Shown here one piece after another: positions 9,646 to 35,501 of a stretch of 44,560 bases of DNA; within the stretch, counting starts at the first letter, position 1; each line of letters starts with the position of its first letter. The stretch is from an uncultured bacterium (GTDB lineage: Bacteria; Zixibacteria; MSB-5A5; UBA10806): assembly GCA_965541585.1 (NCBI GenBank), contig CBEUCH010000021.1:1-44560 (forward strand). Direction: 5' to 3'. The position numbers were made by a program, and so were the translations under genes. A model generated the notes under the pieces. That model saw only the letters and a program-made list of their open reading frames with translations, ran no database searches and had not been told where the DNA came from.

Positions 9646-10668
9646 TTACATCTTCTTCAATAAATCCCCCATTATATGGTAGTCTTCAGCCTGTTCCCAT
9701 ATATGATTAAAGAGTATTGTAAGACCTTCCGCCAGATCGGTGTGTCTAACCACTTGTGTAGTGAAGGTTGTACCGGTTGAAACCGGATCTTTCATAGCGA
9801 GCAAAACAATCTTCATATCGAAAATAGCCATTTTCATCGGCAGCCGCTTAATTACCCGCGCATTTTCTCCTCGTTCAACTTGTTCTTTTAGAATATTGAA
9901 TGTCCATTCCATTTCTTGCTGATTCCAGGGTAGTTCATAAATAGTTCTTATTTTAATTCCGCGCCGGAGTGGTTTGGCTTGCCGATCCGCTTGTTCTTCG
10001 AGTTTTTTCCTGGGTCCAGAATAAGGTGGTTTTGAGAAAATCAAGACTTCCTTTTTGGCCTCGTCGTTAAGTTGTATAAACTTTTTATGAATCTGCTGCG
10101 AGTCTTTTATTATTTCTATGAAATCCAAGGGGTCTACGTTGGCACGGCTGTCCTTGTACTGCGGTTTTAATTCTTCAATGATTTGGTTGATATTCTCTTT
10201 CGCGGTTTTGTTTTCTTCTGATATTTTCTTTTCCCTCTTATTCAATTCAATTAATTTCGCTTCCTTGGCGGCATTGTACTTTTCTAATATGTCTTTTTCC
10301 TTCTTATTCAATTCGATTAATTTCGATTCCTTTGCGGATTTGTACTTTGCTATTATTTCATTTTCCTTATTGGCCAAATTTGCCAACTCGATTTCCATGA
10401 CGTGGTCCATTTGCGAAAGGAATTTATCTTTGATTGATGCTGGATCTGAAGCACCATATCTCTTAGTATTCCCGGGTCTCGATACACATAATCCTCTGGC
10501 CAATAGTTTTTCAAGCGCCTCATACGCATTTGTACGGGGGATTCCCGCGATCTTCGATACCTCTGTTACGGTAAGCGTATCCTTTTCCAACAGAGAGAGG
10601 TAGCTCTTTGCCTCATATAAGCTTAATCCTACCTCCTTAAACCTCTTTAGCAGTAAGGCTCTGCTCAT
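9646..10668 (-). CDS. TrmB-family transcriptional regulator with extended coiled coil (3 x 22-aa repeats)
   Basis: N-terminal 'GLSLYEAKSYLSLL...VSKIAGIPRTNAYEALEKLLARGL' winged HTH; C-terminal PLD-like domain 'AKKEVLIF...IKIRTIY...LPMKMAIFD...LF..IWEQA'. Confidence 0.9.
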   Translation of the reverse strand: MSRALLLKRFKEVGLSLYEAKSYLSLLEKDTLTVTEVSKIAGIPRTNAYEALEKLLARGLCVSRPGNTKRYGASDPASIKDKFLSQMDHVMEIELANLANKENEIIAKYKSAKESKLIELNKKEKDILEKYNAAKEAKLIELNKREKKISEENKTAKENINQIIEELKPQYKDSRANVDPLDFIEIIKDSQQIHKKFIQLNDEAKKEVLIFSKPPYSGPRKKLEEQADRQAKPLRRGIKIRTIYELPWNQQEMEWTFNILKEQVERGENARVIKRLPMKMAIFDMKIVLLAMKDPVSTGTTFTTQVVRHTDLAEGLTILFNHIWEQAEDYHIMGDLLKKM

Positions 10669-10679
10669 GAAAATCCTCG

Positions 10680-10761
10680 TTGTTGTTTTGTTTGATTTTC
10701 AATTAGTTACGAATTCTATTATGCAACAACAACAATATATTCCATAAATTTTTCTTGTCAA
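10680..10761 (-). promoter_or_regulatory. TrmB promoter with overlapping TTGTTGT...ACAACAA inverted repeat (span 53-56 bp)
   Basis: TTGACA (rc of 10756-10761), TATATT (rc of 10734-10739); arms at 10680-10686 and 10726-10735. Confidence 0.65.
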
Positions 10762-10986
10762 GTAAAAAATGGGCCTTTTGCTATTTTTTTTGGAGAAAGA
10801 TAAATAATGGCCTATATTTACTGGCATAATCGGCTTTATAAGCCGTGATAAATCGCAGTGATCAAACTTCCATATAGAGTGTGACCAAATTGTGACGGTT
10901 AATTGCAATGCGAACCTGTTAACTTCATTTATTGTAGAAATCCAGATTTTCTTCATATTGATTTGCAACCATTCAAAGCAATCTCA

Positions 10987-12111
10987 TTAACTGACTTCAA
11001 GTTGATAGATTACACCCTGTTCTTCTAAATACTCCTTAACATACTCAAAATTATTTTCAACCTCTCCAATATATTCAGGCGGTGAAATCCCTTTACGATT
11101 ATATTTATCCGACAATATCAGGTCGGCAACGGCTGTACAGGTATAACCGGTAGTACGCGCCATAGAAGTAGTATTGGTTTCAGAATCAAATCTATCCAAC
11201 ATCGAATAAGTATATGTCTTTGCTTTGTTATTTTCATTACCAGATATAATCAGACGCATTACCGTAATGTCTGGTTCTCCAGGCTGTATTATCCACTTAG
11301 GAAATAATAGGGCGGCTGTCAGATCAAATGGTCTAATAAAATTCTTGCCAACCTGCACTTTATCATATGAAAGGAATCCTGTGTCTCGCAGGACTCGTAA
11401 ATATTCGGTGATTCCAGGATATCGCAAAGTTTTCTCAACCATATTTGGTATATTCATGGTTTTTATTAGTGAACGCAACCCATCAGAATTCAAGCCCTCC
11501 AGCATACCAATTTCCGGAAATTCAAAAGATTCAGGTTCAGAAAGAGCTTCTTTGACGATCAAGTTACCGTCTTCAATAAAGCGTCCAGGTTGAAGGTATT
11601 CTTCGATGCATTCAATTGGTGGAAATACCGTTTTGTATTCCCAGGGCCATTCCCTGTTTTCGGGTAAACCGCCAACATAGCATTCATATTTATTTACATT
11701 CATTTGAGAATTGTGATAACCCAAAATTATGTTACTCATTCCCGGTGCAACGCCACAATCCACAATCGCAGTAACATTATTTTCCTTAGCTAATTCATCC
11801 AATTGAAATGGATCCTCTGAGAAGAACGATATGTCAACGATATTCTTACCAGCTCGAATAACATTTCTTAGAATCTCTAGACCCATATGGCCCGGAAGTG
11901 ATCCAATAACAATATCACAATCAGCAATAATTTTATTTAAGGATTCTTCTGATATATCGGCATGTATGGTTTCGATTCCATAATCGGTATTTAAAGCTTT
12001 AAGCGAATCCTGATTAATATCGACCGCAATTGTATGATATTTTTTCTGCAAATCAACAGCCATTGCTTTACCAACTAATCCAGCGCCTAAAACAACAATC
12101 TTCTTCTTCAG
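10987..12111 (-). CDS. Saccharopine dehydrogenase / lysine 6-dehydrogenase family NAD(P)-dependent oxidoreductase (probable CTG start)
   Basis: Motifs VDISFF, DCGVAPGMSN, YVGGLP, DGLRSL, EKTLRYPG and TSMARTTGY. The frame extends upstream of the track's ATG (12063) through KKKIVVLGAGLVG to a CTG at 12111 preceded by GGAGG. Confidence 0.9.
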   Translation of the reverse strand: MKKKIVVLGAGLVGKAMAVDLQKKYHTIAVDINQDSLKALNTDYGIETIHADISEESLNKIIADCDIVIGSLPGHMGLEILRNVIRAGKNIVDISFFSEDPFQLDELAKENNVTAIVDCGVAPGMSNIILGYHNSQMNVNKYECYVGGLPENREWPWEYKTVFPPIECIEEYLQPGRFIEDGNLIVKEALSEPESFEFPEIGMLEGLNSDGLRSLIKTMNIPNMVEKTLRYPGITEYLRVLRDTGFLSYDKVQVGKNFIRPFDLTAALLFPKWIIQPGEPDITVMRLIISGNENNKAKTYTYSMLDRFDSETNTTSMARTTGYTCTAVADLILSDKYNRKGISPPEYIGEVENNFEYVKEYLEEQGVIYQLEVS

Positions 12112-12345
12112 GAATCCTCCTTTTTTATCGAATATGGTAATATGGTGAAGCTATTTAAGATTGCCAATAGCAAAAAAACTGCAATTCACTATACGCTATA
12201 ATCCTGTTAAGGACGGGGAGTTACAAATAATGGGGCCGAAGAGTCTCGAATTCACCTAATATCGTAATGAACTAATTATATATGAGCGGATGGGGATATG
12301 CACCCCCCATCCTTCTATTGCCTGACATAGACTTACGAGCGGTAG

Positions 12346-12586
12346 TGTGACGGATTTGTGACTATTTTGCGTGGCAGATGACCTGCCCCCCCATAAATCG
12401 GTCCAGCATAAAAGTATGGCAGGATTAACTTGAGCCGTAGTACTATTACCGGGAACAAGACGATTTCCAAGGTTGCAATAGATGCTGTAACCTATTGTAT
12501 AATAAGGGATTAAACGGAGAGACTGGGATTCGAACCGAGTAGCGCCTCTTAGTACCAACGATTTATAGCAGCTGCTACAAATATGC
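12346..12586 (-). mobile_element. att-site scar: TGTGAC arm pair, orphan IS3-like end (12379-12405) and tRNA-Ser-like 3' fragment (12515-12536)
   Basis: CGGAGAGACTGGGATTCGAACC matches 1900-1920, and the following ~50 bp resemble 1921-1970. TGTGAC occurs at 12346 and 12357. Confidence 0.7.
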
Positions 12587-12721
12587 ACTGGAAATCTCTT
12601 TGAATAATTTAAATCAGACAAACTACTGAGACGAGCCCGAGATTCCTTCTTCGAGAATTCATCAGCCACACTATGCTATCGGACTATGATCATTATATTG
12701 GAAGGCTCCTGATCAATTCTG

Positions 12722-13555
12722 TCATCGTTTCTCAACGTTGTATAAAGAGTCAATAGTGGGATAGAGTTCGGTCCAGTAATATTTTAATGCGGGTAATGAT
12801 TGATTCTCGAGTAAATTGCGAATACTTTGTGTGGTCGCCGGTGACGCCGGCATGCCGTGCCAGGGTGGCTGAGCAGGCCGGATAACATTCTCATTTTTTA
12901 TCTCAGCCGGCGCCCTTGAAACAGATAGCACGGTTTCACGTTCGATATATATCGAATCGGGGGGGGCATTTTCAGAGGTCAACGCTTCGTTCTCACTTTC
13001 TATATATTCCTCTTCCATCTCCTCCAACTCTTCGTAAGTATACTGATTGATCAATGACGTACTATCGAATGTCGGAACGGCAGTAAAATCAATCGCTGAT
13101 CTGGTTTGCGCCGATGATTCATTTATGAAATTTTCATACCAGAGCTCATCAAAAAGAAATCGATAGAAATCGGCGATCTGATTTTCAGTCAAATTGTCAT
13201 CCAAATATCTCAGTAACCTCGAAATATTGTCGAAATATATTCCTCTATCCCTCTCAACCTGTATGTTATGATTCTGCAAGATAGCGATTTTCCTCTTTTC
13301 TTCTTTCGAAGACATTCTTTCTTCAAATACCGATAGTGTCTTAATAATCTCGAGGAAACTAAGCTGAACATTATCTATAAGCTCTCTGATGGTTTCAACT
13401 TCACTGGTATCGATATCCACAGAATTCACGATATTCTTAATTCGTTCAATTCGGATATTCCGTGACCTCTCATCGATGGTCTGCGCCGAAACAGCGAACA
13501 TCAAAACTAATATGAATAGAACCATCGCCGGACAGCATATTCTAAAATAATTCAT
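12722..13555 (-). CDS. Hypothetical secreted alpha-helical protein
   Basis: ORF with likely start MNYFRICC at 13555 (AAGGAG upstream) and signal peptide ..LMFAVSA; lies directly downstream of the 1209-aa gene. Confidence 0.75.
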   Translation of the reverse strand: MNYFRICCPAMVLFILVLMFAVSAQTIDERSRNIRIERIKNIVNSVDIDTSEVETIRELIDNVQLSFLEIIKTLSVFEERMSSKEEKRKIAILQNHNIQVERDRGIYFDNISRLLRYLDDNLTENQIADFYRFLFDELWYENFINESSAQTRSAIDFTAVPTFDSTSLINQYTYEELEEMEEEYIESENEALTSENAPPDSIYIERETVLSVSRAPAEIKNENVIRPAQPPWHGMPASPATTQSIRNLLENQSLPALKYYWTELYPTIDSLYNVEKR

Positions 13556-13574
13556 ACTTCGCTCCTTCAAAAAA

Positions 13575-16500
13575 TTATTGCCATACGATTTCAACAGTAC
13601 CTATCAACCAGTCATCTTTGTCAGGGATAAAGGTATTAATGACAACGTCATTTCCTGATCGCACTATAGACCAGTAAACTGTATTGTCATCTTCCTCATG
13701 GGCATAACCGTTTAAGCCTTTAATATTGCATTTGCCCGGGCGTCCTTTAATACGAAATGCCCATGCCGGATGACCGGTACATTGTACATTTGAGCCGCAG
13801 AATGATTGGTTTCCTTTATTCCTGATGAAGAAATGCCAGACCTCTTTTCCGGGCATATCCGCAGCCGGGGCTGTTTCCTGGATGGCCATACCAAAAACCG
13901 GATGAACCTCGGTTCTGGCGGCATGAGCTCCGTCATGAGTCCAGATCCCGAGTACTATCGCTTTTTTACCATCAACAACTTGTTGATAATAATATTTTCC
14001 CATAACCCCTACTGCCTCGAAACCGGGTGATCCGGACCCGGCAATACCATCGAAATTCTGCCAGTAAGGATGACTATTCCAATCTTCGAATGTCTCTTCT
14101 CTGTCGATTTCCAATGTTAGTATAGGCACATTACCGGTGGAATCGAGATAGCTTTTTATATAAGTATATTTGTCCCCTGGCCAGTCATTAGCATCGCATT
14201 TACCACCCTCCGGACATTCCAGTCTCTCATGAATATCTAAATTGGGATCGAGATTAAAAAATCTCTGAGTATTTATAGTGACTCCTGTTCCCGGAGGCGT
14301 TTTTAGTCCGAAATTGCTGTCCATATCGAAAAATGAATTAACATAGCTTTCAAAATAAAGCTCGCCCGTGAACAAGACCGGCATCTGGTAATTTATAAAA
14401 GGTCCGCAGAATGTGCCAGTTGTAAAGAATACGCGATGAGCGAACCCCGGGACATCCTTTACCTTTGAATCATTAAACAGTTTCGATACTCCCCAAACAT
14501 GACTTGTATATTTTGAGGGAACGAAATTCCCCCAGCCACCATGAAAGTGGGGATTGAGCGGGAGGTAATTATCGGGATCAATCTCCCAGTAATCCATATC
14601 GAACGGCCATTGCCCCACATGAGCCGGATTGGCGGGCGGGATAAGGAATTCAGAGGTATTTAATCCCAGGCTGTCTGAAACCAGAAATGTGAATTTACTT
14701 CCCCTCATTTTTACCTTCTGGCCGAACCATCCTACTCTAACATCGCCAGGTGTTATCCAGCCCGATTCCAAAAATTGCCCTTCGTTAAGATAATCAGAAT
14801 ATACCTCGACTTTATTGGCCATATACACCGTATCAAGTTGCCCGACAATATAATATTCCCCGCCGCCGAGAGGATTGACCTCCCAGATCCTGAGCCATGG
14901 CTGATCACCATGGGCGCCGAGTAGAAGGCTGATTCCCTTTCCGGCATTATGATGGATCGAATTTAAGGTAATGCCATTTTTCTTACAATCGATACCTTCT
15001 ATATGAACGCCGTCTCCGTTATTATAAGCGATTTCGTTGCCCCAGTCGGGCCCACCGCCTATAACGTTTTCCTGAGCGTCCCAGTAGAGAGCGACTCCCT
15101 GTACGTTACCGATTTGATCCCCGCTCTTATTAGTACCTATCCAGTTATTTCGGATCAGGTTGTATTTTGCATTGGTGTCGAGCCTTATTCCCGCGCCGCT
15201 ATTGCCGGAAATTACGTTTCCATAGCCATCGTTATCCCCGCCGATAATATTGGCTTCGCTCGCGGTTGTTAAAAATATTCCTCTATGGATATTCGGTATC
15301 GCCTGATTGCCATTGGCGTTAGTACCGATAAAATTGCCCTCGATCTTATTTATAACCGACTTGCGATTGGCCGATCTCTTCATTACGATTCCATCCCTGT
15401 TGCCGCTAATGACATTTCTAAGATTTTCACGGCCGCCGCCGATTCTGTTTCCATGCGACCCTATCAACAATATTCCATCGAGATCGTTGCCTACCGCCGT
15501 ATTACCATCCGCTCCCAGCCCGATAAAGCTGCCGACCACCGTATTCAGATCGCTTTCTGAAATCCTGATTCCATATTCGCGGTTGCCGCTGATTATTTTG
15601 CATCCTTTATCGCAATTATTCCGCGTTCGGGAGCAAGCCCCGCCTATGGCATTGTTTTTTGAACCGTTTTCTATTGAGATTCCTGTCTTGTTGGATAGCC
15701 TGGTTAAACCGTCTGTTTTTACACCAATATAATTTCCTTCGACCGATGTATTTGTAACGCCGCCCAAAAGTAAGATACCATTATTCTGATTGCCAGAAAT
15801 CAGGTTACCCCGATCGGGTTCGCCAAGCTTGTTATTGCTCGCCGCGGCCCGGACTGACACACCCGCCTGATTTCCCATTCCTCCATGTTGTCGTGAGTTT
15901 GTACCGATATAATTACAAATTAACTTATTGCCCCTCCCCTCAATCCGCACACCCGCCCCATTGAAATTATAAATGGCGAGACCCTTTATGACATTGCGGT
16001 TTCCGGGAATATAAATTCCCCGATTTATCTCCTGCCCGTCTATTTCAATTACAGGTCGCAAGCAGTCGCCGAGATCCGGCAAATCAGATAACGGAGCCGC
16101 TATATTCCCGAGACTGCCGTCGATTATAGTCTCATTATCTCTTAATCCTGGAAGTTCGCTGGTCAAATCAATAACCCAGACGCCTGACTGGGAATCGTAT
16201 CCTGGATCCCCTTGAGGTATCTTAAATGCGATGGTATCCGGCCCCGGATTATCGTTGGCCCATATTATTCCCTCACGTAATGAGAGCGGCTTCTGAGGAT
16301 CATTCCGATGGCCGAATATCTGATCATCGGTTGTCGTAACAACTTTCGATGGGTATACTACGATTTCCTCGACCTCGTAAATTTCCGAATTATACTCGAA
16401 TGTCCAGATTTCACTTCTGCCCTCGTTCTCACCAATAGGATATCCATCGCTATCCAGCGCTTGAATCTGCCAGGCATATTGTTTTTCATCCTCAAATTCC

Positions 16501-17204
16501 CTGGCGCCGACAGGATATTGAAACGATGTTAATATTATCTCCGATTCCTCATAATGAGCCAGGTTCTCGATAGCGTCGCCTGGAGTCTGACCATGATAGA
16601 TTTCGCAAATCTTAAAAGTATAATAGACTTGATCCTCAGTGGGAATCGGGATCGGCTCCGTCCATTGGAATAACGGCGAATTGAATATTACAGTACTTTC
16701 ATCCAGGGGTGAGATCAATCGTGGAGCCGATGGCCATGTAGCCGAGAAGTTGAAACAATCTCGTCCTAATAATTCCCTCGCTTCCAGGCCAATAACTTCG
16801 ATACATACCAGATAATTTCCGGCAGGGAATCGCCCAAGCCTTCTTATCGTCTGTTCGAATTCTGAGTTAAACTCCTGATCATGAACATCATCGATATCGC
16901 CGGAAAATATCGTCCTGCCGCCCGGCGATATGATCAGGTTACTGCTACGGCCGCCGAACATCAGGCCTCTATTCTCCTCGTCGACGCTGCCAAGAAGATA
17001 AACTTCGTAACTTTCCTGTTCATTATTGATTATCTGCAACGACCAGAGATCTTCGAGGTAAAGATCATAACCCGGAGGGGAATTCAGAATAACCGTCCAG
17101 TCAGGATTTTGCGCTGATGCCTGACCGAAGAAGAGCGAGTTTATAATCAATATTGATGCCGAAGTTGTCAGCAAATACCTGGCCCTGGCTAATATGTCTT
17201 TCAC
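13575..17204 (-). CDS. Secreted protein: TANFOR-like/Fn3 N-terminal module, CSLREA-like motif, parallel beta-helix repeats and unknown C-terminal domain
   Basis: 'GRFPAGNYLVCIEV...C...PRLISP...PLFQW...Y..KICEI..GQTP..AI..YAWQIQA....ENEGRSEIWTF' resembles TANFOR-type modules; 'VVTTTDD...LSLREGIIWANDNPGPDTIAF'; repeated GN.IG / N.ISGN units. Confidence 0.85.
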   Translation of the reverse strand: MKDILARARYLLTTSASILIINSLFFGQASAQNPDWTVILNSPPGYDLYLEDLWSLQIINNEQESYEVYLLGSVDEENRGLMFGGRSSNLIISPGGRTIFSGDIDDVHDQEFNSEFEQTIRRLGRFPAGNYLVCIEVIGLEARELLGRDCFNFSATWPSAPRLISPLDESTVIFNSPLFQWTEPIPIPTEDQVYYTFKICEIYHGQTPGDAIENLAHYEESEIILTSFQYPVGAREFEDEKQYAWQIQALDSDGYPIGENEGRSEIWTFEYNSEIYEVEEIVVYPSKVVTTTDDQIFGHRNDPQKPLSLREGIIWANDNPGPDTIAFKIPQGDPGYDSQSGVWVIDLTSELPGLRDNETIIDGSLGNIAAPLSDLPDLGDCLRPVIEIDGQEINRGIYIPGNRNVIKGLAIYNFNGAGVRIEGRGNKLICNYIGTNSRQHGGMGNQAGVSVRAAASNNKLGEPDRGNLISGNQNNGILLLGGVTNTSVEGNYIGVKTDGLTRLSNKTGISIENGSKNNAIGGACSRTRNNCDKGCKIISGNREYGIRISESDLNTVVGSFIGLGADGNTAVGNDLDGILLIGSHGNRIGGGRENLRNVISGNRDGIVMKRSANRKSVINKIEGNFIGTNANGNQAIPNIHRGIFLTTASEANIIGGDNDGYGNVISGNSGAGIRLDTNAKYNLIRNNWIGTNKSGDQIGNVQGVALYWDAQENVIGGGPDWGNEIAYNNGDGVHIEGIDCKKNGITLNSIHHNAGKGISLLLGAHGDQPWLRIWEVNPLGGGEYYIVGQLDTVYMANKVEVYSDYLNEGQFLESGWITPGDVRVGWFGQKVKMRGSKFTFLVSDSLGLNTSEFLIPPANPAHVGQWPFDMDYWEIDPDNYLPLNPHFHGGWGNFVPSKYTSHVWGVSKLFNDSKVKDVPGFAHRVFFTTGTFCGPFINYQMPVLFTGELYFESYVNSFFDMDSNFGLKTPPGTGVTINTQRFFNLDPNLDIHERLECPEGGKCDANDWPGDKYTYIKSYLDSTGNVPILTLEIDREETFEDWNSHPYWQNFDGIAGSGSPGFEAVGVMGKYYYQQVVDGKKAIVLGIWTHDGAHAARTEVHPVFGMAIQETAPAADMPGKEVWHFFIRNKGNQSFCGSNVQCTGHPAWAFRIKGRPGKCNIKGLNGYAHEEDDNTVYWSIVRSGNDVVINTFIPDKDDWLIGTVEIVWQ

Positions 17205-17228
17205 ATTTCACTCCTTTTATTCATATAC

Positions 17229-19293: not shown

Positions 19294-20144
19294 CTAAGCA
19301 ACCTCGATCTCCGCGATCCTGGACTTAGCTACAAACTCTGCCGGGGATTGGTATCCCAACGAGCTGTGAGGTCGACCTGTGTTGTATTCCTGGCGCCAGG
19401 CTCCGATCTTCTCCTTTGCATCTTCCAGTGACATAAACCAATGTTCGTTAAGGCACTCCTGCCGAAAGCGCGAATTAAATGCTTCAATCAAAGCGTTATC
19501 AGTGGGTTTGCCAGGACGACTGAAGTCCAGCTCAACGTGGTTCCAATAAGCCCAACGATCGAGATCCTTGGAAATGAACTCCGGGCCGTTATCGACTTGT
19601 ATGCGTTCCGGGAGGCCATGTTGCTTGCTGATTCGCTCCAACACACCCACAACGTCAATCCCCCGAATTCGCTGCCCAACCTTTAACGCCAAGCTCTCAT
19701 GGGTGTGATTGTCGACTATCGGCAAGATCCGGAGACGACGACCATCATAAAGCTGATCCGACACGAAATCCATGCTCCAGCAGTCGTTCTTCGCCTTGGC
19801 CGAGGCCGTAATCTCTCGCTTCACACTGGCCACCCGCCGGCGAGGTGGCTTCTTTCGCAAGGCCAATCCTTCTTCTCGATACAGGCGATAAACACGCTTA
19901 TGGTTGACTGACCAGCCTTCCCGCTGCAGCAGAACGTGCAACCGGCGGTAACCATACCCAATCCGACACCCGGCCAACTCCTTCAATCGCATCCGTAAGC
20001 CTTCCTGTCGATCAGCCACGCCTGGTAGCGATGACTCGACCGGTGCCATCCCAGACCTCCACAGGCCCGCCGTTCACTGATCTGATATGCCATTTCCATC
20101 TCGACTACCAGTTCCCGACGTACGGCAGGCCTCAAAGCTTTTTT
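19294..20144 (-). pseudogene. IS3 transposase OrfB (DDE/rve) with an additional frameshift near 20021
   Basis: WSMDF, DNGPEF and N..IE.FN...R.ECLN motifs. The -1 frame after the slippery site reads ALRPAVRR..SERRAC..LGWHRSSHRYQ and then needs another shift to reach VADRQEGLRMRLKELA. Confidence 0.85.
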
Positions 20145-21268: not shown

Positions 21269-21375
21269 TTCCCAACAGGTTTCTATAGAAGTTTGTTTGT
21301 TATCGCAGCCATGACTTGGCTGTGAACGTTCATTTTTATTCAAGAAATAAACTTTAAAAATACAGGAGAACCAGT

Positions 21376-22692: not shown

Positions 22693-22716
22693 CACAACGA
22701 ATTTGAGGATAGGAAT

Positions 22717-23673: not shown

Positions 23674-23690
23674 GGCAACGAGGTAAAAAA

Positions 23691-26816: not shown

Positions 26817-27157
26817 TGAAGAAGATCAAAGCTTACGTTAAATCGCATCGGCTATCAGAGGTTACTCTGGCCCTTCATAAAGTGGAGAGTTTGCCGGGCA
26901 TGAGCGTCACTGAAGTCAAAGGATTCGGCCGACGTTGTGATTCTGAAGATCATCAGCACCCAAACGACGATCCTGGGGACTTTATGTCGATATCAAAGAT
27001 CGAGATCTTTTGCCGCGACGAATTGGTGGACACTCTCGTTGAGACAATCGAAAAGGCGGCTCATACAGGTTTGTGCGGTGACGGCAAGATATACGTTTTG
27101 CCGGTCGAACAGGCCGTTCGCATCAGCACCGGTGAGCGCGGTCAGGCGGCCATTTAA
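26816..27157 (+). CDS. P-II family protein associated with czc operon
   Basis: Start ATG overlaps the czcA stop (TAATG); 'MKKIKAYVK', 'GMSVTEVKGFGR', 'AHTGLCGDGKIYV.PVEQAVRISTGERG'. Confidence 0.9.
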   Translation: MKKIKAYVKSHRLSEVTLALHKVESLPGMSVTEVKGFGRRCDSEDHQHPNDDPGDFMSISKIEIFCRDELVDTLVETIEKAAHTGLCGDGKIYVLPVEQAVRISTGERGQAAI

Positions 27158-27382
27158 CGATAGTATAGATATGATGTTAGCAGTGTACGTCTTCAAATAA
27201 ATTCGAACAATTTGTATCCTAAAATAAAAGACATTTTTTCGATTAGCAAATCCTTTTGGCGATTTATCTGCAGAAATTCCTCTACGATCCATAAGTCCTG
27301 AAGCCAGAAACATCAAACAAACTTGAATATTGATGTGGCAGCACTAACGTAAATGTGGTGTAACTATTGGGAGTAGATTCAT

Positions 27383-27609
27383 CTGGGCCTTGATCCCAGA
27401 GAGGCCGTTATCGCTCAATCACTTACAAAATATGTTGCAAAAACGGAGAGACTGGGAATCTCCGACATAGGTTTTAGTTAATCCCATACACAGCAGCAAA
27501 ATACGGGATAACTATAAGATTTTCAATAGATTAGGTTTTATATCTGTTTGTGTCTGTTTGTATCTGTTTTTGTCTGTTTTGGTGGTAGGTGGTCACAATA
27601 TGGGCACAA
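27383..27609 (-). mobile_element. att-site scar: 14-bp tRNA-Ser-like core (27444-27457), four 10-bp tandem repeats and arm-type pair
   Basis: 27383-27457 resembles 1828-1913; TRTCTGTTTK x4 at 27541-27580; GTCACA/GGCACA at 27592 and 27603 (11-bp period). Confidence 0.7.
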
Positions 27610-27759
27610 AAGCGTTTCGCCATCATTTTATAGAGAGGTCAAACAACTACACCATGCCATACACGCCGCCAGAATGGATGGAGCCACGCTAAGACTTTAG
27701 AGCGAGATTTTCGCATACATCCATACTCCATTTCCGTTAATCCCCAATTAGTGGAAATG

Positions 27760-27788
27760 AAAAAGGGGCTGTCACTGAAACAGCCCCT
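27760..27788 (-). terminator. Rho-independent terminator
   Basis: AGGGGCTGT/ACAGCCCCT stem with an A-tract on the + strand, 30 bp past the 27819 stop of the frameshifted tail. Confidence 0.75.
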
Positions 27789-27906
27789 CTTCCCATCTCA
27801 GGAAGTATTAGCTTACTCTTATTCCGACGTCTTTCCCTTACTAATGTTGACCTTGGTCTTCAGGGACGGCATCACCAGCGGCTGGTCTCCCTCACCTCGT
27901 AATAGC

Positions 27907-29034
27907 CTACCCGATCCCCGGGCAATCCTCACAGCCGGTGAGCGGTACGGGGCCTCTGTAGGCTGCGATTGACTTGACGACGTCCGTAAGCTCGAAGCTC
28001 GTGCAGTTACCGTCCACATCGGCGGAAGGCTTATACTCAGGATTCTGCTCCGAGCAATCGCAGACGTAGACGGGTTGATCAAAGCCTCTGTAGTAGGCGA
28101 TCATCTTGACAACGTCCGTAAGCTCACGCGCGATGCCGTTTTCGTCGCTGTCGCCGGGGAGGTGGGCGCAGGTGGGACCGCCTAACTCAACCTCGCAGAG
28201 CTCTATCCAGTAAGCCCTCATGCCCTCAAGCTCAACCTCCACCGTATCGCCGGCGTTGGTGATCTCATAGACTCCGCCGGTGCTGCCGGAGGCATCGGTC
28301 ACCAAAAGATTGCCGTTCCCCAACCGATATATGCCTCCACCATAGTGATTGAAGAGCATATTGTGGATGGTCCCATCCAGATCAAAATCCATGATCTGGC
28401 CAGAAAGGGCAAAGCCGGCAGTAAGGTAAGCGCCGGGCAATTGCGGGTCGGCCTGAATCTGTTGCGGCATGGTTGGAACGCTAATCACGTCCGCGGAGGG
28501 AGTACCGTCGGAATTGTATAGTCGGATGATATTTGCGCCTGCAACAGACACCAAACTCCGCCCATCTTCCAGAAAGAAGATCTCATGCATAGGTTCGCCA
28601 TCGGGATTGGTGATGAAATCCGACAAACGGCTGTGCGGGCCGTCAAATTCAAATACTTCAGTACCATTAGGTATGAAGAGGTGGTCTTCCCGAAAGGCGA
28701 TGCCTCTAACGAAGTCAAGACCGTCGGAGCCATCAGCGTATATATAAAGGTAGTTGCCGGTCGCGTCAAAAACATGAATTTTCTCGTCCCCGTACTCTGC
28801 AACATAAATATTGCCGTCGGGACCTTGAATGGCGTTGAAGTGATGAACTAGAGTAGGTAACGCAGTAAAAACGCCCAGATTATGACCGTCAAATGGATCA
28901 AACCCGTAGATCTCTGCCGCCGTTGTTGACCACACAGGTATCAAAAGTACCGACGTCGTATCGGCCAGGGCAACCGACGAGGTGCAAAAGAGCGTCAAAA
29001 GAAAAACCAACCAATAGGATTTCTTCATGGCCAT
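27907..29034 (-). CDS. Secreted NHL-type beta-propeller protein with dockerin-like C-terminal domain; basic tail (to 27819) is out of frame
   Basis: Signal peptide; 'GPDGNIYVAEYGDEKIHVFDATGNYL'; C-terminal domain closely matching that of 2698-9051. Confidence 0.85.
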   Translation of the reverse strand: MAMKKSYWLVFLLTLFCTSSVALADTTSVLLIPVWSTTAAEIYGFDPFDGHNLGVFTALPTLVHHFNAIQGPDGNIYVAEYGDEKIHVFDATGNYLYIYADGSDGLDFVRGIAFREDHLFIPNGTEVFEFDGPHSRLSDFITNPDGEPMHEIFFLEDGRSLVSVAGANIIRLYNSDGTPSADVISVPTMPQQIQADPQLPGAYLTAGFALSGQIMDFDLDGTIHNMLFNHYGGGIYRLGNGNLLVTDASGSTGGVYEITNAGDTVEVELEGMRAYWIELCEVELGGPTCAHLPGDSDENGIARELTDVVKMIAYYRGFDQPVYVCDCSEQNPEYKPSADVDGNCTSFELTDVVKSIAAYRGPVPLTGCEDCPGIG

Positions 29035-29045
29035 CCTCTCCGTTT

Positions 29046-29152
29046 AGAGTTGTTAGTAATCTTGTCGGCCGGAAGCTGACGACCTTGGGGTTGCCTATCA
29101 GAGTTGTTAGTAATCTTGTCGGCCGGAAGCTGACGACCTTGGGATTGCCTAT
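29046..29152. repeat. 54-bp tandem duplication in the leader of the NHL gene
   Basis: AGAGTTGTTAGTAATCTTGTCGGCCGGAAGCTGACGACCTTGGGRTTGCCTAT at 29046 and 29100, with one mismatch. Confidence 0.95.
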
Positions 29153-29195
29153 TTGAAAATCCGACACTACATCCACCACTACGGCAATCCGCGAT

Positions 29196-29378
29196 ACCGG
29201 TATGTGAATGTCGTTCGGCCTTAATTTTATAATAATACAATCCCGAGGCCCGGTCCTTCGCGTCCCACACAACGCGATAATTCCCGGCCCGCTGATCCTG
29301 GCCCGTAAGCCTCTCTATTTTGCGGCCCAGCAGATCGTAAATATCAACGGTGACGAAGGCCTCCTCGGGTAAACTATT
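29196..29378 (-). pseudogene. Orphan FlgD/T9SS-type C-terminal domain remnant
   Basis: SLPEEAFVTVDIYDLLGRKIERL..QDQRAGNYRVVWDA....SGLYYYKI closely matches the tails of the two upstream BNR proteins but has no N-terminal part. Confidence 0.8.
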
Positions 29379-29418
29379 CACGTGCCGTCAGGTCGGCGGA
29401 CCTGACGGTCTTACCGGG

Positions 29419-29456
29419 TGTCGGGTTTTTCGGCTTCACCTCAGAACCCGACCTAC
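29419..29456 (-). repeat. GTAG-type REP-like palindrome
   Basis: Reverse complement reads GTAGGTCGGGTT...AACCCGACA directly after the 29459 stop; related copy at 31821-31860; extra hairpin at 29385-29408. Confidence 0.65.
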
Positions 29457-29458
29457 GT

Positions 29459-31774
29459 CTACTTCAATAAGATCATCTTTCTCATACCCGATATTTCGCC
29501 GGCATTTATCCTGTAAAAATAAACGCCGGACGCTTGCTCCCTCGCATCCCAGACAACCCGATAACTCCCGGCCCGCTGATCCTCACCCACAAGCCTCTCC
29601 ACCCTGCGGCCGAGCAGATCGTAAATATCCACGGTAACGAATGCTTGCTCCGGAAGGTCGTATTCGATGGTGGCGGAGGGGTTGAACGGGTTCGGGTAGC
29701 TGGATGCCGAAAAGGCCGCCGGCAGAGTATTGTCAACCAGGTCGATACCGGTCCGGGTTCTGGTAATCGTCCAGACGGAAGCACCCCAGTGACCAACGAA
29801 AATCCTGCTGGTGTCAATAGGATCTATCACCGTCCGCCCCTTGATAATAGTAGTCTCCATATTCAGGTTGAAATCCTCCCAACTTCCGCCGCCGTCATGC
29901 GATTGGAAAAAACCGCGATTATCAGATAGGGCAAAGATATTATCGGGGTTAAGAGGGTTTACAGCCAGACCGCTGAAACCTTGGTTAGCGCTGTCACGCG
30001 GGATATTATTACCGATTTCAGCCCAACTCAGACCGCTGTTTGTCGATTTATACATTTCGAAATCGGGGTATCCCCCCACGGTTATATAGACTATATCGGG
30101 ATTTACCGGGTCACAGGCTATTAGCCTTACATCGCTCGGCGAGTTTGTCAGAGCTTCCCAGGATTCGCCGCCATTTGTGGATTTGTATGGAAAACCGGAC
30201 CAACCACTGATAAAGACAAGATCGGGATTTACAGGACTAACGGCGAGGGCGTCTTCGCAATCAATATCCGACGGAAGCCCTCCCTGGCAGAAGGACCAAC
30301 TCATGCCGAGATCATCGGAGCGGAAAAGACCCTCGCTTGATCCCATAAGCAAGCGGCGCGTGCCATTTCCGTAATCAACCACGGCTATTTCCGTATAAAC
30401 TCTACCGCGAGGCAGGCCCTCCGTGAACAACTCCCAGGTCGCCCCGCCGTCCGTGGAACGGTACAGTGCGCCGTTATAATCATAATCGTCATGACCGCCA
30501 TAACTTACATATACATAAGACGGATCATAAGGGTCAACCTCGACACTGACTCCACCGAAAAAGTAATTGGAGTCGGGGAAATCCAATTGGACATATTCCC
30601 AGCTTGCCGCCCCGTCGGCAGAGATATAAAGTCCATTCTTCGTTCCCGCAAATAAAGTATCCGGATTGTGCCGGTTGACGGCGATATTGTGTATCTGGGC
30701 GCCGGTAACGTTGTAGCTGATCTTCTGCCAACTGGCGCCGTCATTTGTAGACTTGTAGATCCCGCCGGCATAAAAGCCGAGATATATAATGCCGGTCGCG
30801 GGATCGGAAGTCAACGTCTGCGCCCGGCGACATGCGCCTATAACACCCTGGTTAGCCTCCTCCCAGGTCTCGCCGCCATCGGTGCTTCTCAGGACTCGGT
30901 CGGCTCTACTGCAAACAATAATAATATTATGATCGAGGGGGGCTACCTCAACGTTATACAAATAGCTTTCAGACAGGCCCTGTGGCGTAATGTCGGTCCA
31001 GCTTCCTCCGCCATCGGTCGACTTGGACAGGAGCCATTCGTATGAGGATTCAGAACGTCCGGTTATATATAGAATCTCAGGATCGACAGGGTCTATCTCT
31101 ATATCGGTTCCGCCGGCGACCTGGCGGTTATTGGAGATATTCTGCCAACTGGCGCCGGAATCGGTGCTTTTCCACGTGCCTGTAGCCGGACCCTGGTATT
31201 GAGCCGCCAGGTATATTATGTTGGGGCTGACCGGGTTGGCTTTGATCGCCCCTGTAGCGAACGGAATTCCAAGCCAGGTTGCTCCTCCGTCCGTGGATCT
31301 GAAACTTCCCCCGGAGTAGCCATTACCAACAAACAGAACAGGCGGATCAGTTCGGGAGAGTTCCATACGACTCCATTCCGAAGTAGGCCACTGCAGGGGT
31401 AGGCGTGACCAGCTCTGCCCGGCATCTGTACTTTTATAGGCGCCTCTGACGGTGCCGATAAATATGGTATCCGGCCCGAAGGGGTGAATCTTCACAACCC
31501 GGACATTCCGTGCTTCCATGCGTCCTTCAGAATCAGGTGAACCGGGGAAATGCGACCATTCGGCGCCGCCGTCGGTGGTCTGGAATATGAAGTTTTCCAG
31601 GGTCGCTATATAAAGGCGTTGGTTATCTGCCGGGTCGATGGCGATAGACCAGACCGAAGCGTCGTAAGGCCCGCCGCTGGTCCAGGTATCCTCCTGGGCG
31701 AGGGCTATCTGGATCTGCGCCAGAGCCAGAAACGCGATGCCCGCCAGAATACAAAGCGGTGTCCCGGTTCTCAT
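29459..31774 (-). CDS. Secreted BNR/YCF48/VPS10-type beta-propeller protein with FlgD/T9SS-type C-terminal domain
   Basis: Many S.DGG.TW (Asp-box) repeats; likely start MRTGTPLC at 31774 with GGAGAG upstream; 'SYPNPFNPSATIEY...SGVYFYRI...KMILLK'. Confidence 0.9.
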   Translation of the reverse strand: MRTGTPLCILAGIAFLALAQIQIALAQEDTWTSGGPYDASVWSIAIDPADNQRLYIATLENFIFQTTDGGAEWSHFPGSPDSEGRMEARNVRVVKIHPFGPDTIFIGTVRGAYKSTDAGQSWSRLPLQWPTSEWSRMELSRTDPPVLFVGNGYSGGSFRSTDGGATWLGIPFATGAIKANPVSPNIIYLAAQYQGPATGTWKSTDSGASWQNISNNRQVAGGTDIEIDPVDPEILYITGRSESSYEWLLSKSTDGGGSWTDITPQGLSESYLYNVEVAPLDHNIIIVCSRADRVLRSTDGGETWEEANQGVIGACRRAQTLTSDPATGIIYLGFYAGGIYKSTNDGASWQKISYNVTGAQIHNIAVNRHNPDTLFAGTKNGLYISADGAASWEYVQLDFPDSNYFFGGVSVEVDPYDPSYVYVSYGGHDDYDYNGALYRSTDGGATWELFTEGLPRGRVYTEIAVVDYGNGTRRLLMGSSEGLFRSDDLGMSWSFCQGGLPSDIDCEDALAVSPVNPDLVFISGWSGFPYKSTNGGESWEALTNSPSDVRLIACDPVNPDIVYITVGGYPDFEMYKSTNSGLSWAEIGNNIPRDSANQGFSGLAVNPLNPDNIFALSDNRGFFQSHDGGGSWEDFNLNMETTIIKGRTVIDPIDTSRIFVGHWGASVWTITRTRTGIDLVDNTLPAAFSASSYPNPFNPSATIEYDLPEQAFVTVDIYDLLGRRVERLVGEDQRAGSYRVVWDAREQASGVYFYRINAGEISGMRKMILLK

Positions 31775-31820
31775 TTTCTCTCCCTTTTTCTTGCGTTGTT
31801 TATTGGTTCCAGTGTCAACT

Positions 31821-31860
31821 TGTCGGGTTTTTCGGCTGAGCCTCAAAATCCGACCCCTAC
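31821..31860 (-). repeat. GTAG-type REP-like palindrome, second copy
   Basis: TGTCGGGTTTTTCGGCTGAGCCTCAAAATCCGACCCCTAC, just after the 31867 stop. Confidence 0.6.
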
Positions 31861-31866
31861 GTTTTA

Positions 31867-34161
31867 TTACTTTAATAAAATCATCTTCCTCATATCCGAT
31901 ATTTCGCCAGCATCTATCCTGTAAAAATAAACGCCAGACGCTTGCTCCCTCGCATCCCAGACAACGCGATAATTCCCGGCCCGCTGATCCCGGCTGACGA
32001 GCCTCTCAACCTTGCGGCCCAGCAGATCGTAAATGTCCACGGTGACGAAGGTTTCCACCGGCAAGCTATATTCGATGGTCGCGGAGGGATTGAACGGGTT
32101 CGGATAGCTCGATGCCGAAAAGGCCGCCGGCAGAGTATTGTCAACCAGGTCGATACCGGTTTGGGTCCTGGTAATCGTCCAGACGGAACCGCCGTCGATG
32201 GCCAGAAAGATCCTGCTGGTGTCGACCGGATCTATCAATGTGTAGCCCATAATAACGGTAGTTTCCATATTCAGGTTGAAATCCTCCCAACTACCCCCCC
32301 CGTCATGCGATTGGAAAAACCCGCGGTTATAGGATAAAGCAAAGATGTTATCGGGGTCAAGAGGGTTTACAGCCAGGCCGGTGAAAACCGGGAAAATGCT
32401 CTCACGCGGGATATTATTACTGATTTCAGCCCAACTCAGACCGCCGTTTGTCGATTTATATATCTCAGCGGTTGATAGAAATCCCCCGACTATATAGATT
32501 ATATCAGCGTTCAGCGGATCACAGGCGATTCCATCATATATTGTTCCTATATGGAAATTTGGCAAAGATGCCCAGGTTTCGCCGCCATCGGTGGTTTTGT
32601 ACAACCGGCCCGAAGACCAGTTCGGCTCGCCGACAAAAACAAGGTCCGGATTTACCGGGCTGACCTCGACAGCGACTACTTCGATATCCGCGGGTAACCC
32701 CCCCGCGCAAATAAACCAGCTTTCGCCGAGATCGTCGGAACGGTAAAGACCATCATTTGACTCGATAAACAGCCGGCGAACGCCGTTGCCATAATCTGCC
32801 ACGGTTATTTTGCCATAACTGTTATCCGGAGGCAGCCCCTGTGTGAATGACTCCCAGGTCGCCCCGCCGTCCGTGGAACGATAAATCTCGCCACGGCTCC
32901 ATGTCACATATATATAAGACGGATCATAAGGATCTATCTCAACATAGTATCCACCCCGTACGCCATCGGCGGATCTTAAGTCGACATACTCCCAGCTTGC
33001 CGCTCCGTCGACGGACATGTAAACCGCGTTCAACGTGGCCACAAATAAAATATCGGGATCGCGCCGGTTGGCGGCGATGCCATGGACCTGCGAGCCGGTA
33101 ACGTTGTAGCTGATCTTCTGCCAGCTGGCACCGTCATTTGTAGACTTGTAGATCCCGCTGGCATAAAAGCCGAGATAGATGATGCCGGTCGCATGATCGG
33201 AGGTTAATGTCTGCGCCCTGGTTTCCGTGCCGATAATACCCTGGTTCGCCTCCTCCCAGGTCGCTCCGCCGTCGGTGCTTCTCAGAACCCCGTCGGCCCT
33301 GCTACAGACGATGATAGTATTATGATCGAGGGGGGCTACCTCAACATTATAAAGCTCGCCTTCAGTCAAGTCGGGAGGCGTTATATCGATCCAGGTTCCT
33401 CCCCCGTCGATGGACTTAGACAGGCGCCATTCGTACGAGGGTCCAGAACGCCCGGTTATATATAAAATTTGAGGATCGACCGGGTCGATCTCTATATCCG
33501 TTCCGCCGGCGACCTGGCGGTTATTGGAGATATTCTGCCAGGTGGCGCCGGAATCGGTGCTTTTCCACGTGCCTGTAGACGGACCCTGGTATTGAGCCGC
33601 CAGGTATATTATGTTGGGGCTGACCGGGTCGGCTTTTATCGCCCCTGTAGCAAAGGGAATTGCAAGCCAGGTTGCTCCTCCGTCCGTGGATCTGAAACTT
33701 GCCCCGGGGAAACCGTTAGCAACGAACAGAACAGGCGGATCAGTTCGGGAGAGCTCCATGCGATCCCATTCCGACCCGGGATATATCAAAGGCAAGCGAG
33801 ACCAACTCTGTCCGGCATCTGTACTTTTATAGGCGCCTCTGCCGGTGGCGATGAAGATGGTATCCGGCCCGAAGGGGTGAATCTTCACAACCCGGACATT
33901 CCGAGCTTCCATGCGTCCTTCAGGATCAGGAGAACCGGGGATATGCGACCATTCGGCGCCGCCATCGGTGGTCTGGAATATAAAGTTTTCCAAGGTGGCT
34001 ATATAAAGGCGTTGATTATCTGCCGGGTCGATGGCGATTGACCAGACCGAAGCCTCATAAGGCCCGCCGCTGGTCCAGGTATCCTCCTGGGCGTGGGAAA
34101 CCCTGACCACAGCCAGAATCACGGCAATCGTAAGCAGACAAAAGTACCTACGGCTTTCCAT
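31867..34161 (-). CDS. Tandem paralog: BNR/YCF48-type beta-propeller protein with FlgD/T9SS-type C-terminal domain
   Basis: 764 aa with long near-identical stretches to 29459-31774. Confidence 0.92.
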   Translation of the reverse strand: MESRRYFCLLTIAVILAVVRVSHAQEDTWTSGGPYEASVWSIAIDPADNQRLYIATLENFIFQTTDGGAEWSHIPGSPDPEGRMEARNVRVVKIHPFGPDTIFIATGRGAYKSTDAGQSWSRLPLIYPGSEWDRMELSRTDPPVLFVANGFPGASFRSTDGGATWLAIPFATGAIKADPVSPNIIYLAAQYQGPSTGTWKSTDSGATWQNISNNRQVAGGTDIEIDPVDPQILYITGRSGPSYEWRLSKSIDGGGTWIDITPPDLTEGELYNVEVAPLDHNTIIVCSRADGVLRSTDGGATWEEANQGIIGTETRAQTLTSDHATGIIYLGFYASGIYKSTNDGASWQKISYNVTGSQVHGIAANRRDPDILFVATLNAVYMSVDGAASWEYVDLRSADGVRGGYYVEIDPYDPSYIYVTWSRGEIYRSTDGGATWESFTQGLPPDNSYGKITVADYGNGVRRLFIESNDGLYRSDDLGESWFICAGGLPADIEVVAVEVSPVNPDLVFVGEPNWSSGRLYKTTDGGETWASLPNFHIGTIYDGIACDPLNADIIYIVGGFLSTAEIYKSTNGGLSWAEISNNIPRESIFPVFTGLAVNPLDPDNIFALSYNRGFFQSHDGGGSWEDFNLNMETTVIMGYTLIDPVDTSRIFLAIDGGSVWTITRTQTGIDLVDNTLPAAFSASSYPNPFNPSATIEYSLPVETFVTVDIYDLLGRKVERLVSRDQRAGNYRVVWDAREQASGVYFYRIDAGEISDMRKMILLK

Positions 34162-34400
34162 TTTTTCTCTCCTCCTGCGTTGTTCAGTTGTTCATCGGAT
34201 CCAGTGCCGTCATCCACCTGTCTGCCGACCTGCATTTTTCCTATAGCCCCTGAGCCTGGCGGTTTGCTTTTTTGATTCTAATTATTTTACATGGTGCCGG
34301 ATTCGGAATCCGACACCACAAAATCTGTTTAGCTTCTTTCCTCCTTCCTTTTCCCGCCCCCCCGGGCGGGCAAATACAGTTACTCATAATTTCTTCTTAC

Positions 34401-34513
34401 TTGACGTCCCTTATGGTCGGCGCTTATATTGCGGTCGGGTTACTTAATGTATAGAAGTATAAGGGACCCGTTCACTGAGCCGTCAAGCCTCAACCTTGCC
34501 GGCTCACTTTTTT
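34401..34513 (+). promoter_or_regulatory. Conserved element downstream of TrmB gene, copy 2
   Basis: TTGACG (34401)-18 bp-TATATT (34425); GTCCCTTAT 34406-34414 / ATAAGGGAC 34459-34467; hairpin 34476-34506 followed by a T-tract. Confidence 0.65.
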
Positions 34514-34526
34514 ATTATAAAGATTG

Positions 34527-35423
34527 TCACATCTTCTTCAATAAATCCTCCAGAACGTTGTAGTCTTCGGCTTGTTCCCATAATGTCTCAAATGTGATTT
34601 TTAAGGTTTTTGCCAGATTGCTGTGTTCGACAACTTGAAATGTAAAAGACTCGCCAACGGAAATATGGTCTTTCAATTGAAATATAGCGACTTTCTCATC
34701 AAAGACCGCCATTTTCATTGGCAACTCCGCGATCACGCGGTTTTCATCACAGTCAAGCTCGGCAGTTTCGCGAATGAATTTAAGCTTCAAATGAAGTTCT
34801 TCTTTGGTTTTAGGAATTTCATGAATAGTTTTAATTCTAATCTTCCCGGCCTTGAGCAATTCAGCCTGTTGCGTTTCTTGTTCTTTTATCGTCTCATTAT
34901 CGACAGTGTAGGGAGGTTTGTCAAAAACCAACATCTCCTTTTCAGCCTTGCCCACCAATTCCATATACCTTTTATGAATCTGATAGGAGTTTTTTATGAT
35001 CTCGATAAAATCCATGGGGTTTTCATTGGAGCGGCTGTTCCTGTAAATAGGCGTTAGTTTATCCAGCAGGTCGGTCACATTTTCGCGAGCCGCTTTCTTT
35101 TCTGACAATATCTCTTCTTGTTTCTCATACAGCTTATTAAGCCTGCCTTCAAACGAACGGTCAAGAGCCTCGAGCGCTTTCTTTTCCAGCGAAGCGGGGT
35201 CAGCGGCGCTATATTTTCTTATCTTCCCCGGTTTCGATACGCAAAATCCCTTGGCCAATAACTTCTCGAGCGCTTCGTAAGCGTTGGCGCGAGGGATTCC
35301 GGCTATTCTGGCAACCTCCGCAACGGACAACGTATGCTTTTCCAATAGTGAAAGATAACATCTTGTTTCATAAGGGCTTAGCTTTAACTCTTTGAACTTC
35401 GTAATGATAACCCCGTTACTCAT
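34527..35423 (-). CDS. TrmB-family transcriptional regulator (single 22-aa coiled-coil unit)
   Basis: Clear paralog of 9646-10668 (AGIPRANAYEALEKLLAKG; DFIEIIK; LPMKMAVFD; WEQAEDY...DLLKKM). Confidence 0.9.
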   Translation of the reverse strand: MSNGVIITKFKELKLSPYETRCYLSLLEKHTLSVAEVARIAGIPRANAYEALEKLLAKGFCVSKPGKIRKYSAADPASLEKKALEALDRSFEGRLNKLYEKQEEILSEKKAARENVTDLLDKLTPIYRNSRSNENPMDFIEIIKNSYQIHKRYMELVGKAEKEMLVFDKPPYTVDNETIKEQETQQAELLKAGKIRIKTIHEIPKTKEELHLKLKFIRETAELDCDENRVIAELPMKMAVFDEKVAIFQLKDHISVGESFTFQVVEHSNLAKTLKITFETLWEQAEDYNVLEDLLKKM

Positions 35424-35440
35424 TCAGCCTCCACAAGCCG

Positions 35441-35501
35441 TTGTTGTAGTGGTTCATTTCACAACCACAACAAGTATAAATAGCCTGAGCCGTTTTGTCA
35501 A
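35441..35501 (-). promoter_or_regulatory. TrmB promoter with overlapping TTGTTGT...ACAACAA inverted repeat (span 33 bp)
   Basis: TTGACA (rc 35496-35501)-17 bp-TATACT (rc 35473-35478); arms 35441-35453 and 35461-35473 (11/13 complementary). Confidence 0.7.

Follow-up and report, generated by a model that had tools for sequence, protein, structure and literature searches.

Linker repeats follow operator spacing in TrmBL2-like bacterial regulators: a candidate coiled-coil ruler

In HsdS of type I restriction-modification systems, the gap between half-sites is fixed by tandem repeats within the helical spacer that joins its two DNA-recognition domains; the TAEL repeats of EcoR124I/II are reportedly spacer repeats of this kind. 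The LEAT repeats of NgoAV HsdS are described as a molecular ruler, with recognition of N6 for one LEAT and of N7 for two (10.64898/2026.01.10.698759). Here we report that a family of bacterial regulators may measure DNA in a comparable way, in steps of a whole DNA turn. Two of its members are encoded on a 44,560-nt stretch of DNA from an uncultured bacterium of the Zixibacteria (contig CBEUCH010000021.1, assembly GCA_965541585.1), hereafter the window. Their likeness to HsdS is one of mechanism, without homology. In HsdS, a methyltransferase/nuclease component, the step is 4 aa for 1 bp within a gap of 6-8 bp, unlike the window family, in which putative homodimeric transcription factors would use 22 aa per DNA turn, with arm centres as far apart as about 60 bp.

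The half-site spacer of Gal4 is 11 bp. Zinc-cluster factors of the Gal4/Ppr1 type are presented as sharing a common half-site, the spacing of which differs among paralogs under the influence of the linker; the spacer of Ppr1 is given as 6 bp (PMC10250231). Unlike the window family, these factors are eukaryotic, their spacers are short, and it is the conformation of the linker before the dimerisation helix, not repeat number, that matters. The HsdS ruler appears to us the closest precedent, and Gal4/Ppr1 a looser one.

By architecture, the window proteins resemble TrmBL2 of Pyrococcus furiosus (PDB 5bpd/5box/5bqt) and archaeal TrmB (PF01978), with a helix-turn-helix of the winged type (wHTH), a dimerisation helix (putative in the window proteins) and a phospholipase D (PLD) fold. 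The TrmB coil is reported to pair Phe81 with Ile91' and Phe84 with Leu88', and hence to be antiparallel, in a dimer described as domain-swapped about the dimerisation helix; the same review gives the TrmB site as TACT-N3-AGTA and TrmB-family sites with gaps of 3 to 8 bp (PMC4158304). TrmBL2 itself is characterized as an abundant chromatin protein able to bind non-specifically (PMC4877046). Unlike TrmBL2, the window regulators are bacterial, each has a predicted private palindrome at its own promoter, and in their family the helix has grown by as many as three 22-aa units, or more. Outside subscription papers (TrmB/TrmBL2 structure papers included), we found no description of a ruler with whole-DNA-turn steps in the TrmB family or in any other bacterial transcription factor.

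Linker repeats and putative operators of the window genes

The longer gene (9646..10668, minus strand) encodes a 340-aa protein made up of a wHTH (residues 1-75), a 104-residue linker and a PLD-fold domain (180-340). The shorter one (34527..35423, minus strand) encodes a 298-aa protein with a 60-residue linker. Both open reading frames (ORFs) stand where a preliminary description of the window had placed two TrmB paralogs. Their TrmB-type wHTH was recognized by PF01978 at 66.9 and 61.4 bits against a cut-off of 25.6 (E 1e-18 for the long protein). TrmBL2 is the nearest solved relative of both by sequence and by fold: its structures were the top Foldseek matches of the long protein, and the short protein matched 5bpd at E 4e-11 over residues 12-286. 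The predicted model and the fold search gave both proteins the same order of wHTH, long amphipathic helix and PLD-like alpha/beta domain; a match of the long protein to DUF7436 was below cut-off. The NCBIfam profile of the TrmBL2 chromatin protein (NF041141) scored 45-54 bits against a cut-off of 530, and those of sugar-sensing TrmB/TrmBL1 (NF040851, NF047390, NF047392) scored 21-31 bits against 500-650, over the N-terminal part only. In the model, both proteins stop after the PLD fold and, like TrmBL2, are without the sugar-binding barrel. The PLD catalytic motif is HxKxxxxD; at its position P277, K279 and D284 are conserved, an invariant Pro replaces the His, and the C-terminal domain is, as modelled, a degenerate PLD fold. 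The statement that the two HTH domains are nearly the same held for the recognition helices, which differ at one position (T/A), but not for the wHTH domains overall, which are 64% identical.

Alignment of the long and short proteins revealed one gap only, of 44 residues. As first described, the long protein contains three 22-aa (66-bp) linker units (residues 94-159; 10192..10389, minus strand) and the short one a single unit (residues 94-115; 35079..35144, minus strand). Tandem Repeats Finder on the long gene returned a period of 66 at 10225-10368, with 2.2 copies and 84% matches. Linker length, as used here, is the count of residues that separate two conserved prolines, which gives 60 for the short and 104 for the long protein. 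Lengths are quantised, with a step of 22 residues: in 120 of 121 proteins, linkers measured 52 (1 protein), 53 (2), 60 (62), 64 (11), 68 (11), 82 (19), 100 (1), 104 (10) or 126 aa (3). None of 71, 93 or 115 aa was found among the 120 proteins, which came from a search seeded with the long protein; a class-B locus outside that set (L031; classes are defined below) has a 71-aa linker. Across 37 long linkers, not one Pro occurs in 2496 core residues, and the hydrophobic period of 3.65 corresponds to an 11-residue pattern. When repeat units were compared, they formed no clean clusters by locus, and the comparison did not support independent expansion. Separately, one locus (L038; G017:C8, about 1011600-1012800) has a 151-residue linker built of 11-residue repeats (52 + 9 x 11).

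Each gene is preceded by a sigma70-type promoter with 11 of 12 consensus matches, identified by consensus match only: TTGACA-16-TATATT for the long gene (10734..10761, minus strand) and TTGACA-17-TATACT for the short one (35473..35501, minus strand). A putative operator follows each of them. In that of the long gene (10677..10735), one 12-bp arm (10724-10735) overlaps the -10 box and the other lies at 10677-10688, which makes the span 59 bp; that of the short gene (35438..35473) spans 36 bp with 12-bp arms and 33 bp with 7-bp arms. The inverted repeats noted earlier, a shorter-arm reading at 10680-10735 (56 bp, or 53) and 35441-35473 (33 bp), are indeed present, and both overlap the end of the near-consensus -10 box.

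To place these operators in the 3.5-Mb source genome, which holds four paralogs of the regulator, we scanned it for arm pairs of 24-80 bp; the weight matrix used was derived from 84 half-sites found in other genomes. The long-gene operator ranked first (score 31.3) and the short-gene operator second (26.7). Genome-wide, the motif is restricted to these promoters: four of the 10 pair matches above score 20 are promoters of the TrmB-like paralogs (ranks 1, 2, 3 and 7), and the remaining ones mostly have no promoter, so that the matrix scan found no wider regulon. For the paralog on contig C24, the scan favoured a 51-bp pair and the class-A matrix introduced below gave 38. This pattern suggests autoregulation without a broad regulon, and the predicted palindrome that every gene has to itself favours a specific regulator over a non-specific chromatin protein that forms filaments as a tetramer on DNA.

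Operator span and linker length among homologs

The preliminary description had proposed, from these two genes alone, that repeat count tracks the spacing of operator arms, with 10-11 bp per repeat. Loci for a broader comparison came from related genomes, 80 of 393 confirmed metagenome stretches and 32 genome loci. They provided 131 distinct genes with both domains, reduced to 123 by collapse at 95% and to 96 with a called promoter and enough flank; the 27 of 123 genes dropped for lack of either included L038 and 19 genes with 42-aa linkers. A caller that had no information on the protein took the top-scoring 10-bp inverted repeat past the -10 box as the operator. Over the 96 promoters, span rose with linker length (Spearman rho 0.65, slope 0.46 +- 0.04 bp/aa). 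With the window of search fixed at 90 nt, which removes leader-length bias, the correlation was still observed (rho 0.57, slope 0.41 +- 0.06 bp/aa). Controls gave rho 0.11 upstream of the -35 box (n=92) and 0.09 downstream of the stop codon (n=95), and ten shuffles gave -0.11 to 0.13. A score of 11 was reached by 45 of the 96 promoters against 6% of shuffles; these 45 gave rho 0.76 with a slope of 0.51 +- 0.04, and rho was still 0.81 after collapse to 35 clusters. A straight helix rising 1.5 A per residue along DNA of 3.4 A per bp corresponds to 0.44 bp per residue. The observed slopes, 0.41-0.51 bp per residue over the family, lie around this value.

The same relation was detected with a matrix for the half-site class of the window genes, class A, trained only on the 32 loci with 60-aa linkers and applied to all 50 class-A loci. 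Allowing for an uncertainty of +-3 bp in single spans from the 3-bp period of the operator arms, spans were 30-46 bp (median 39) for 60-aa linkers (n=32), 40, 49 and 50 bp for 82 aa, 59, 59, 59 and 62 bp for 104 aa, and 73 bp for 126 aa (n=1). In round figures, class-A spans come to about 36-41 bp (60 aa), 49 bp (82 aa), 59 bp (104 aa) and 73 bp (126 aa). When the left arm was held at the -10 box, span rose by 10.0 +- 1.4 bp for every 22 aa (40 class-A loci), in agreement with the predicted 10-11 bp; the permutation p for this step was 5e-5, with kin treated as independent. Non-overlapping pairs of related loci differed in the predicted direction in all five cases, by +6 to +17 bp. One of the five pairs belongs to the second class, class B, and provides a separate step: in one genome, L039 (74 aa) exceeds L020 (52 aa) by 8.5 bp according to the caller, their HTH domains being 79% identical.

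The length of the untranslated region (UTR) does not follow linker length (rho 0.18), and the distal arm of long-linker loci lies 6-44 nt from the start codon. The position of the symmetry axis was also uncorrelated with linker length over the 96 loci (rho 0.18), because class-B operators begin at varied distances from the -10 box. On a quick tree of both domains minus the linker (83 rows), long linkers were scattered.

Several observations weigh against a strict ruler. Within class A alone, the rank correlation was 0.39, and 0.24 after accounting for UTR length; it is modest because 32 of the 50 loci share one length and spread over 30-46 bp. Class-A loci with a promoter and a linker of at least 82 aa number eight only, against 33 proteins found with linkers this long, and the sign test on the five pairs gave p = 0.06. 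Linkers of 68 aa, with spans of 37, 37, 37, 37 and 40 bp, showed no clear gain over 60 aa. The class-A matrix placed L123 (82 aa) at 40 bp and L119 (64 aa) at 25 bp; in the run with the left arm held at the -10 box, 46 bp was the shortest span of an 82-aa locus. In class B, the rise between 46 and 52 aa is steeper than 0.44 bp/aa. L038, with its 151-aa linker, has just a weak pair 29 bp apart and does not fit. In the source genome, near-equal spans of 34, 36 and 38 bp are seen in three of the four paralogs, all three of class A, and spacing therefore sets apart only the long paralog. Taken as a correlation over natural variants, repeat number in the spacer helix appears to predict the half-site gap, with L038 as the one exception.

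Recognition helix, coil and competing explanations

Operator arms fall into two half-site classes, which, like the matrix seeds, were first spotted by eye. Residue 47, two before the conserved Tyr49, is N, S or G in proteins with TTGTwGTTGTwA arms (class A) and R or K in those with TGywACTACTA arms (class B). Leave-one-out matrices assigned 49/50 and 38/43 loci to their own class (87/93 in total). The initial idea that paralog specificity is set by linker length rather than by the recognition helix therefore went too far: linker length goes with spacing, but residue 47 predicts the half-site class, and three of the four source-genome paralogs have near-equal spacing. Specificity looks like a two-part code of recognition helix and spacing. 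The conserved tyrosine (Tyr49/50) is common to this family and the TrmB family, the class-B half-site contains the TrmB site TACT-N3-AGTA, and several members with 42-46-aa linkers carry or nearly carry that site. Class A may represent either a C-to-G change or a flipped half-site.

One chimeric locus, L039, has a C-domain 84% like that of the short window protein and an HTH 54% like it, and its operator goes with the HTH and linker; P0003 and P0007 are 96% identical in the N-part and 60% in the C-part. We noted domain shuffling among paralogs (L039; P0001, P0003, P0006, P0007), in which head and linker recombine with the C-domain near the linker end. Members from Ignavibacteria (L198, L203-L206, L208) have 46-aa linkers, a TRTKIY helix and a third half-site, TATCCCC...GGGGGTA, of which some loci have a second copy upstream of the -35 box. 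A distant G+C-rich group with 42-aa linkers (L129-L154), most of which is outside the correlation, shows an apparent GACACC...GGTG palindrome on the -35 box and not behind the -10 box.

We consider a coiled-coil ruler acting together with the recognition helix the best explanation of these data, with a probability of roughly 0.74. In the mechanism we infer, each gene would be an autorepressor heading a unit of secreted proteins. Its product would dimerise via a long antiparallel coiled coil, presenting two winged-HTH heads at opposite ends. These heads would bind both arms of the inverted repeat, one of which covers the start site and the end of the -10 box, and would keep transcription shut off until a signal, presumably an effector, is sensed by the PLD-fold domain, itself catalytically dead. 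The 22-residue unit would consist of two 11-residue repeats making six helical turns over about 33 A with little net twist, and each unit would part the heads by about one DNA turn on the same helix face. An 11-residue step would keep the coil register but move the heads by half a DNA turn, and two such steps would keep them on one face, which may thus be the reason for the 22-residue step size. Operator arms would move in 10-12 bp steps, to a distance between centres of as much as about 60 bp; the half-site letters would be chosen by the recognition helix, while the ruler would discriminate between spacings. Simple arithmetic is roughly consistent with this: the 99-residue helix of the long protein (76-174) measures about 148 A against about 160 A for 47 bp centre to centre, and in the short protein 55 residues and 24 bp both come to about 82 A.

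If the long coil were a loose tether, its length would be an upper bound, narrow operators would be bound as well, and spacing would drift outward with little insulation of paralogs. The scatter of 30-46 bp at a single linker length, the lack of gain from 60 to 68 aa, the misfit of L038 and the near-equal spans of three source-genome paralogs all suit a tether, as do triplet-periodic arms, which permit several registers. Long loci, however, lack a narrow pair and have tight values (59, 59, 59 and 62 bp), the group profiles peak at single spans, the slope is that of a rigid helix, and the 120 proteins show no half-unit (11-aa) steps. We regard a tether as unlikely.

More doubtful still is a coil that folds back, the extra units forming an intramolecular hairpin that leaves the head distance fixed; wide sites would then be bound by two dimers or tetramers, and the correlation would reflect shared descent of a promoter-HTH cassette. 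AlphaFold2 monomer models (pLDDT, the predicted local distance difference test score, 91 for the 340-aa protein and 87 for a 357-aa homolog with a 126-aa linker) speak for it and against the ruler in breaking the one long helix near its middle, at 118-122 and 131-134, respectively. So does a tree test on the N-part alone, which did not reject a single clade for the eight long loci (approximately unbiased test, p-AU 0.22). The domain-swapped arrangement given for the TrmB dimer (PMC4158304) and the tetrameric state given for TrmBL2 on DNA (PMC4877046) point the same way. Against a fold-back, the break moves with the midpoint, by about half a unit, and falls on different repeat phases, and long linkers contain no Pro. 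A midpoint break fits a single chain imitating a symmetric antiparallel dimer, and monomer models also allow a real hairpin. Even descent from a single clade would require three graded steps, to which class B adds a separate one, and descent alone would leave all of these unexplained. That the inverted repeat is a 5' leader RNA hairpin, or a chance pairing between a start region rich in T/G and a ribosome-loading stretch rich in A/C, is very improbable: G.U-type mismatches do exceed A.C ones (70 vs 46, p = 0.03, on loci that are not independent), which counts against a DNA operator, and several leaders can pair part of the arms, but the same G.U excess occurs upstream of the likely start site (41 vs 27), the left arm starts within the -10 box region in 47/50 class-A loci, the predicted leader fold of L001, L012 and L021 is weak or leaves the arms largely unpaired, and the arm letters follow the recognition helix, with a distal arm not tied to the start codon.

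Downstream genes, family distribution and implications

The likely targets of the long gene lie at 2698..9452 and those of the short gene at 29459..34161 (both minus strand), co-transcription being judged from orientation only. The former comprise a 97-aa BNR-like fragment (9159..9452, minus strand), which resembles the start of the BNR/Vps10 genes behind other members and is probably a truncated remnant, and a protein of 2117 aa that bears a signal peptide as well as InhA-like MAM and carboxypeptidase-regulatory domains (2698..9051, minus strand). The latter are a pair of BNR/Vps10 propeller proteins that carry secretion C-terminal sorting domains. Across the family, 68 loci gave a downstream ORF, which usually starts with a signal-peptide-like stretch by a crude rule, and in 10 of 20 downstream proteins that we chose from these 68, a domain for secretion sorting or of FlgD-Ig type was recognized at E 1e-5. 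The regulators thus appear to head units of secreted proteins.

Behind the long gene lies a conserved 122-nt element (9516..9637, plus strand) composed of a convergent promoter-like site (9523-9551), about 80 nt, and a terminator-like hairpin (9598-9629). Copies are found behind the short gene (34394..34514, plus strand) and at C4:15169-15290 and C24:19424-19543, that is, just behind all four paralogs, with no significant match elsewhere in the source genome; in all, the element occurs in 12 non-redundant loci. It is a putative small RNA gene. The consensus fold of its sense strand contains the terminator-like hairpin only, and Rfam, searched with six loci, returned one match (E 0.59), below the gathering score and unrelated to the elements. 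Pairing of this putative downstream RNA with its own promoter was considered and found no support, the match GTCCCTTAT/ATAAGGGAC showing no co-variation in divergent copies. A second type of element, 15-65 nt past the regulator stop (L075, L076, L077, L078, L108, L019, L110 and about 25 further loci), consists of a strong ribosome-binding site, a 15-codon ORF of MQIDLQGxCxLIxET type and a G+C hairpin, followed by the secreted gene. It may act as RNA rather than peptide, given its nucleotide-level variation and the copies that have no start codon. Elsewhere in the window, three tandem paralogous small secreted-looking proteins of 145, 144 and 136 aa without Pfam match are encoded at 35659-37396 (minus strand), the first two genes being followed by near-identical hairpin-bearing spacers, and an ORF with an IS3-type integrase core (rve domains) lies at 19294-20049 (minus strand).

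The family was found in 17/61 relatives and in 19/285 genomes of the phylum, mostly of one order, with 15 genes in one genome (G017). Among viral contigs, 205 pattern matches included no relative. Among RNA runs, none was listed as a holder, a result that speaks in neither direction.

How duplicated regulators avoid cross-talk has long been asked, and a change in the recognition helix is what is usually invoked. The regulators described here point to a second, geometric axis legible from sequence, repeat number predicting operator spacing in units of DNA turns. This kind of ruler is already known from HsdS; its whole-DNA-turn stepping in TrmB-like repressors would be the new element. If the ruler holds, single dimers would span 45-60 bp between half-site centres, far wider than reviewed TrmB-family sites. 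The four natural lengths, together with unit deletions, make it directly testable. Going further, the family could be a natural kit of orthogonal repressors, a proposal for which we see about even odds: the coil would count DNA turns, 22 added residues would re-address a gene to a new spacing (up to about 70 bp overall) with the head unchanged, and cassettes of promoter, operator, head and ruler would be swapped onto different sensor domains. A length-programmable repressor scaffold for synthetic biology, its target set by rod length, would follow. For the bacteria themselves, the data suggest that the ruler may help each paralog find its own promoter and, if the family is such a kit, a single genome could operate as many as 15 paralogs with a small set of half-site words.

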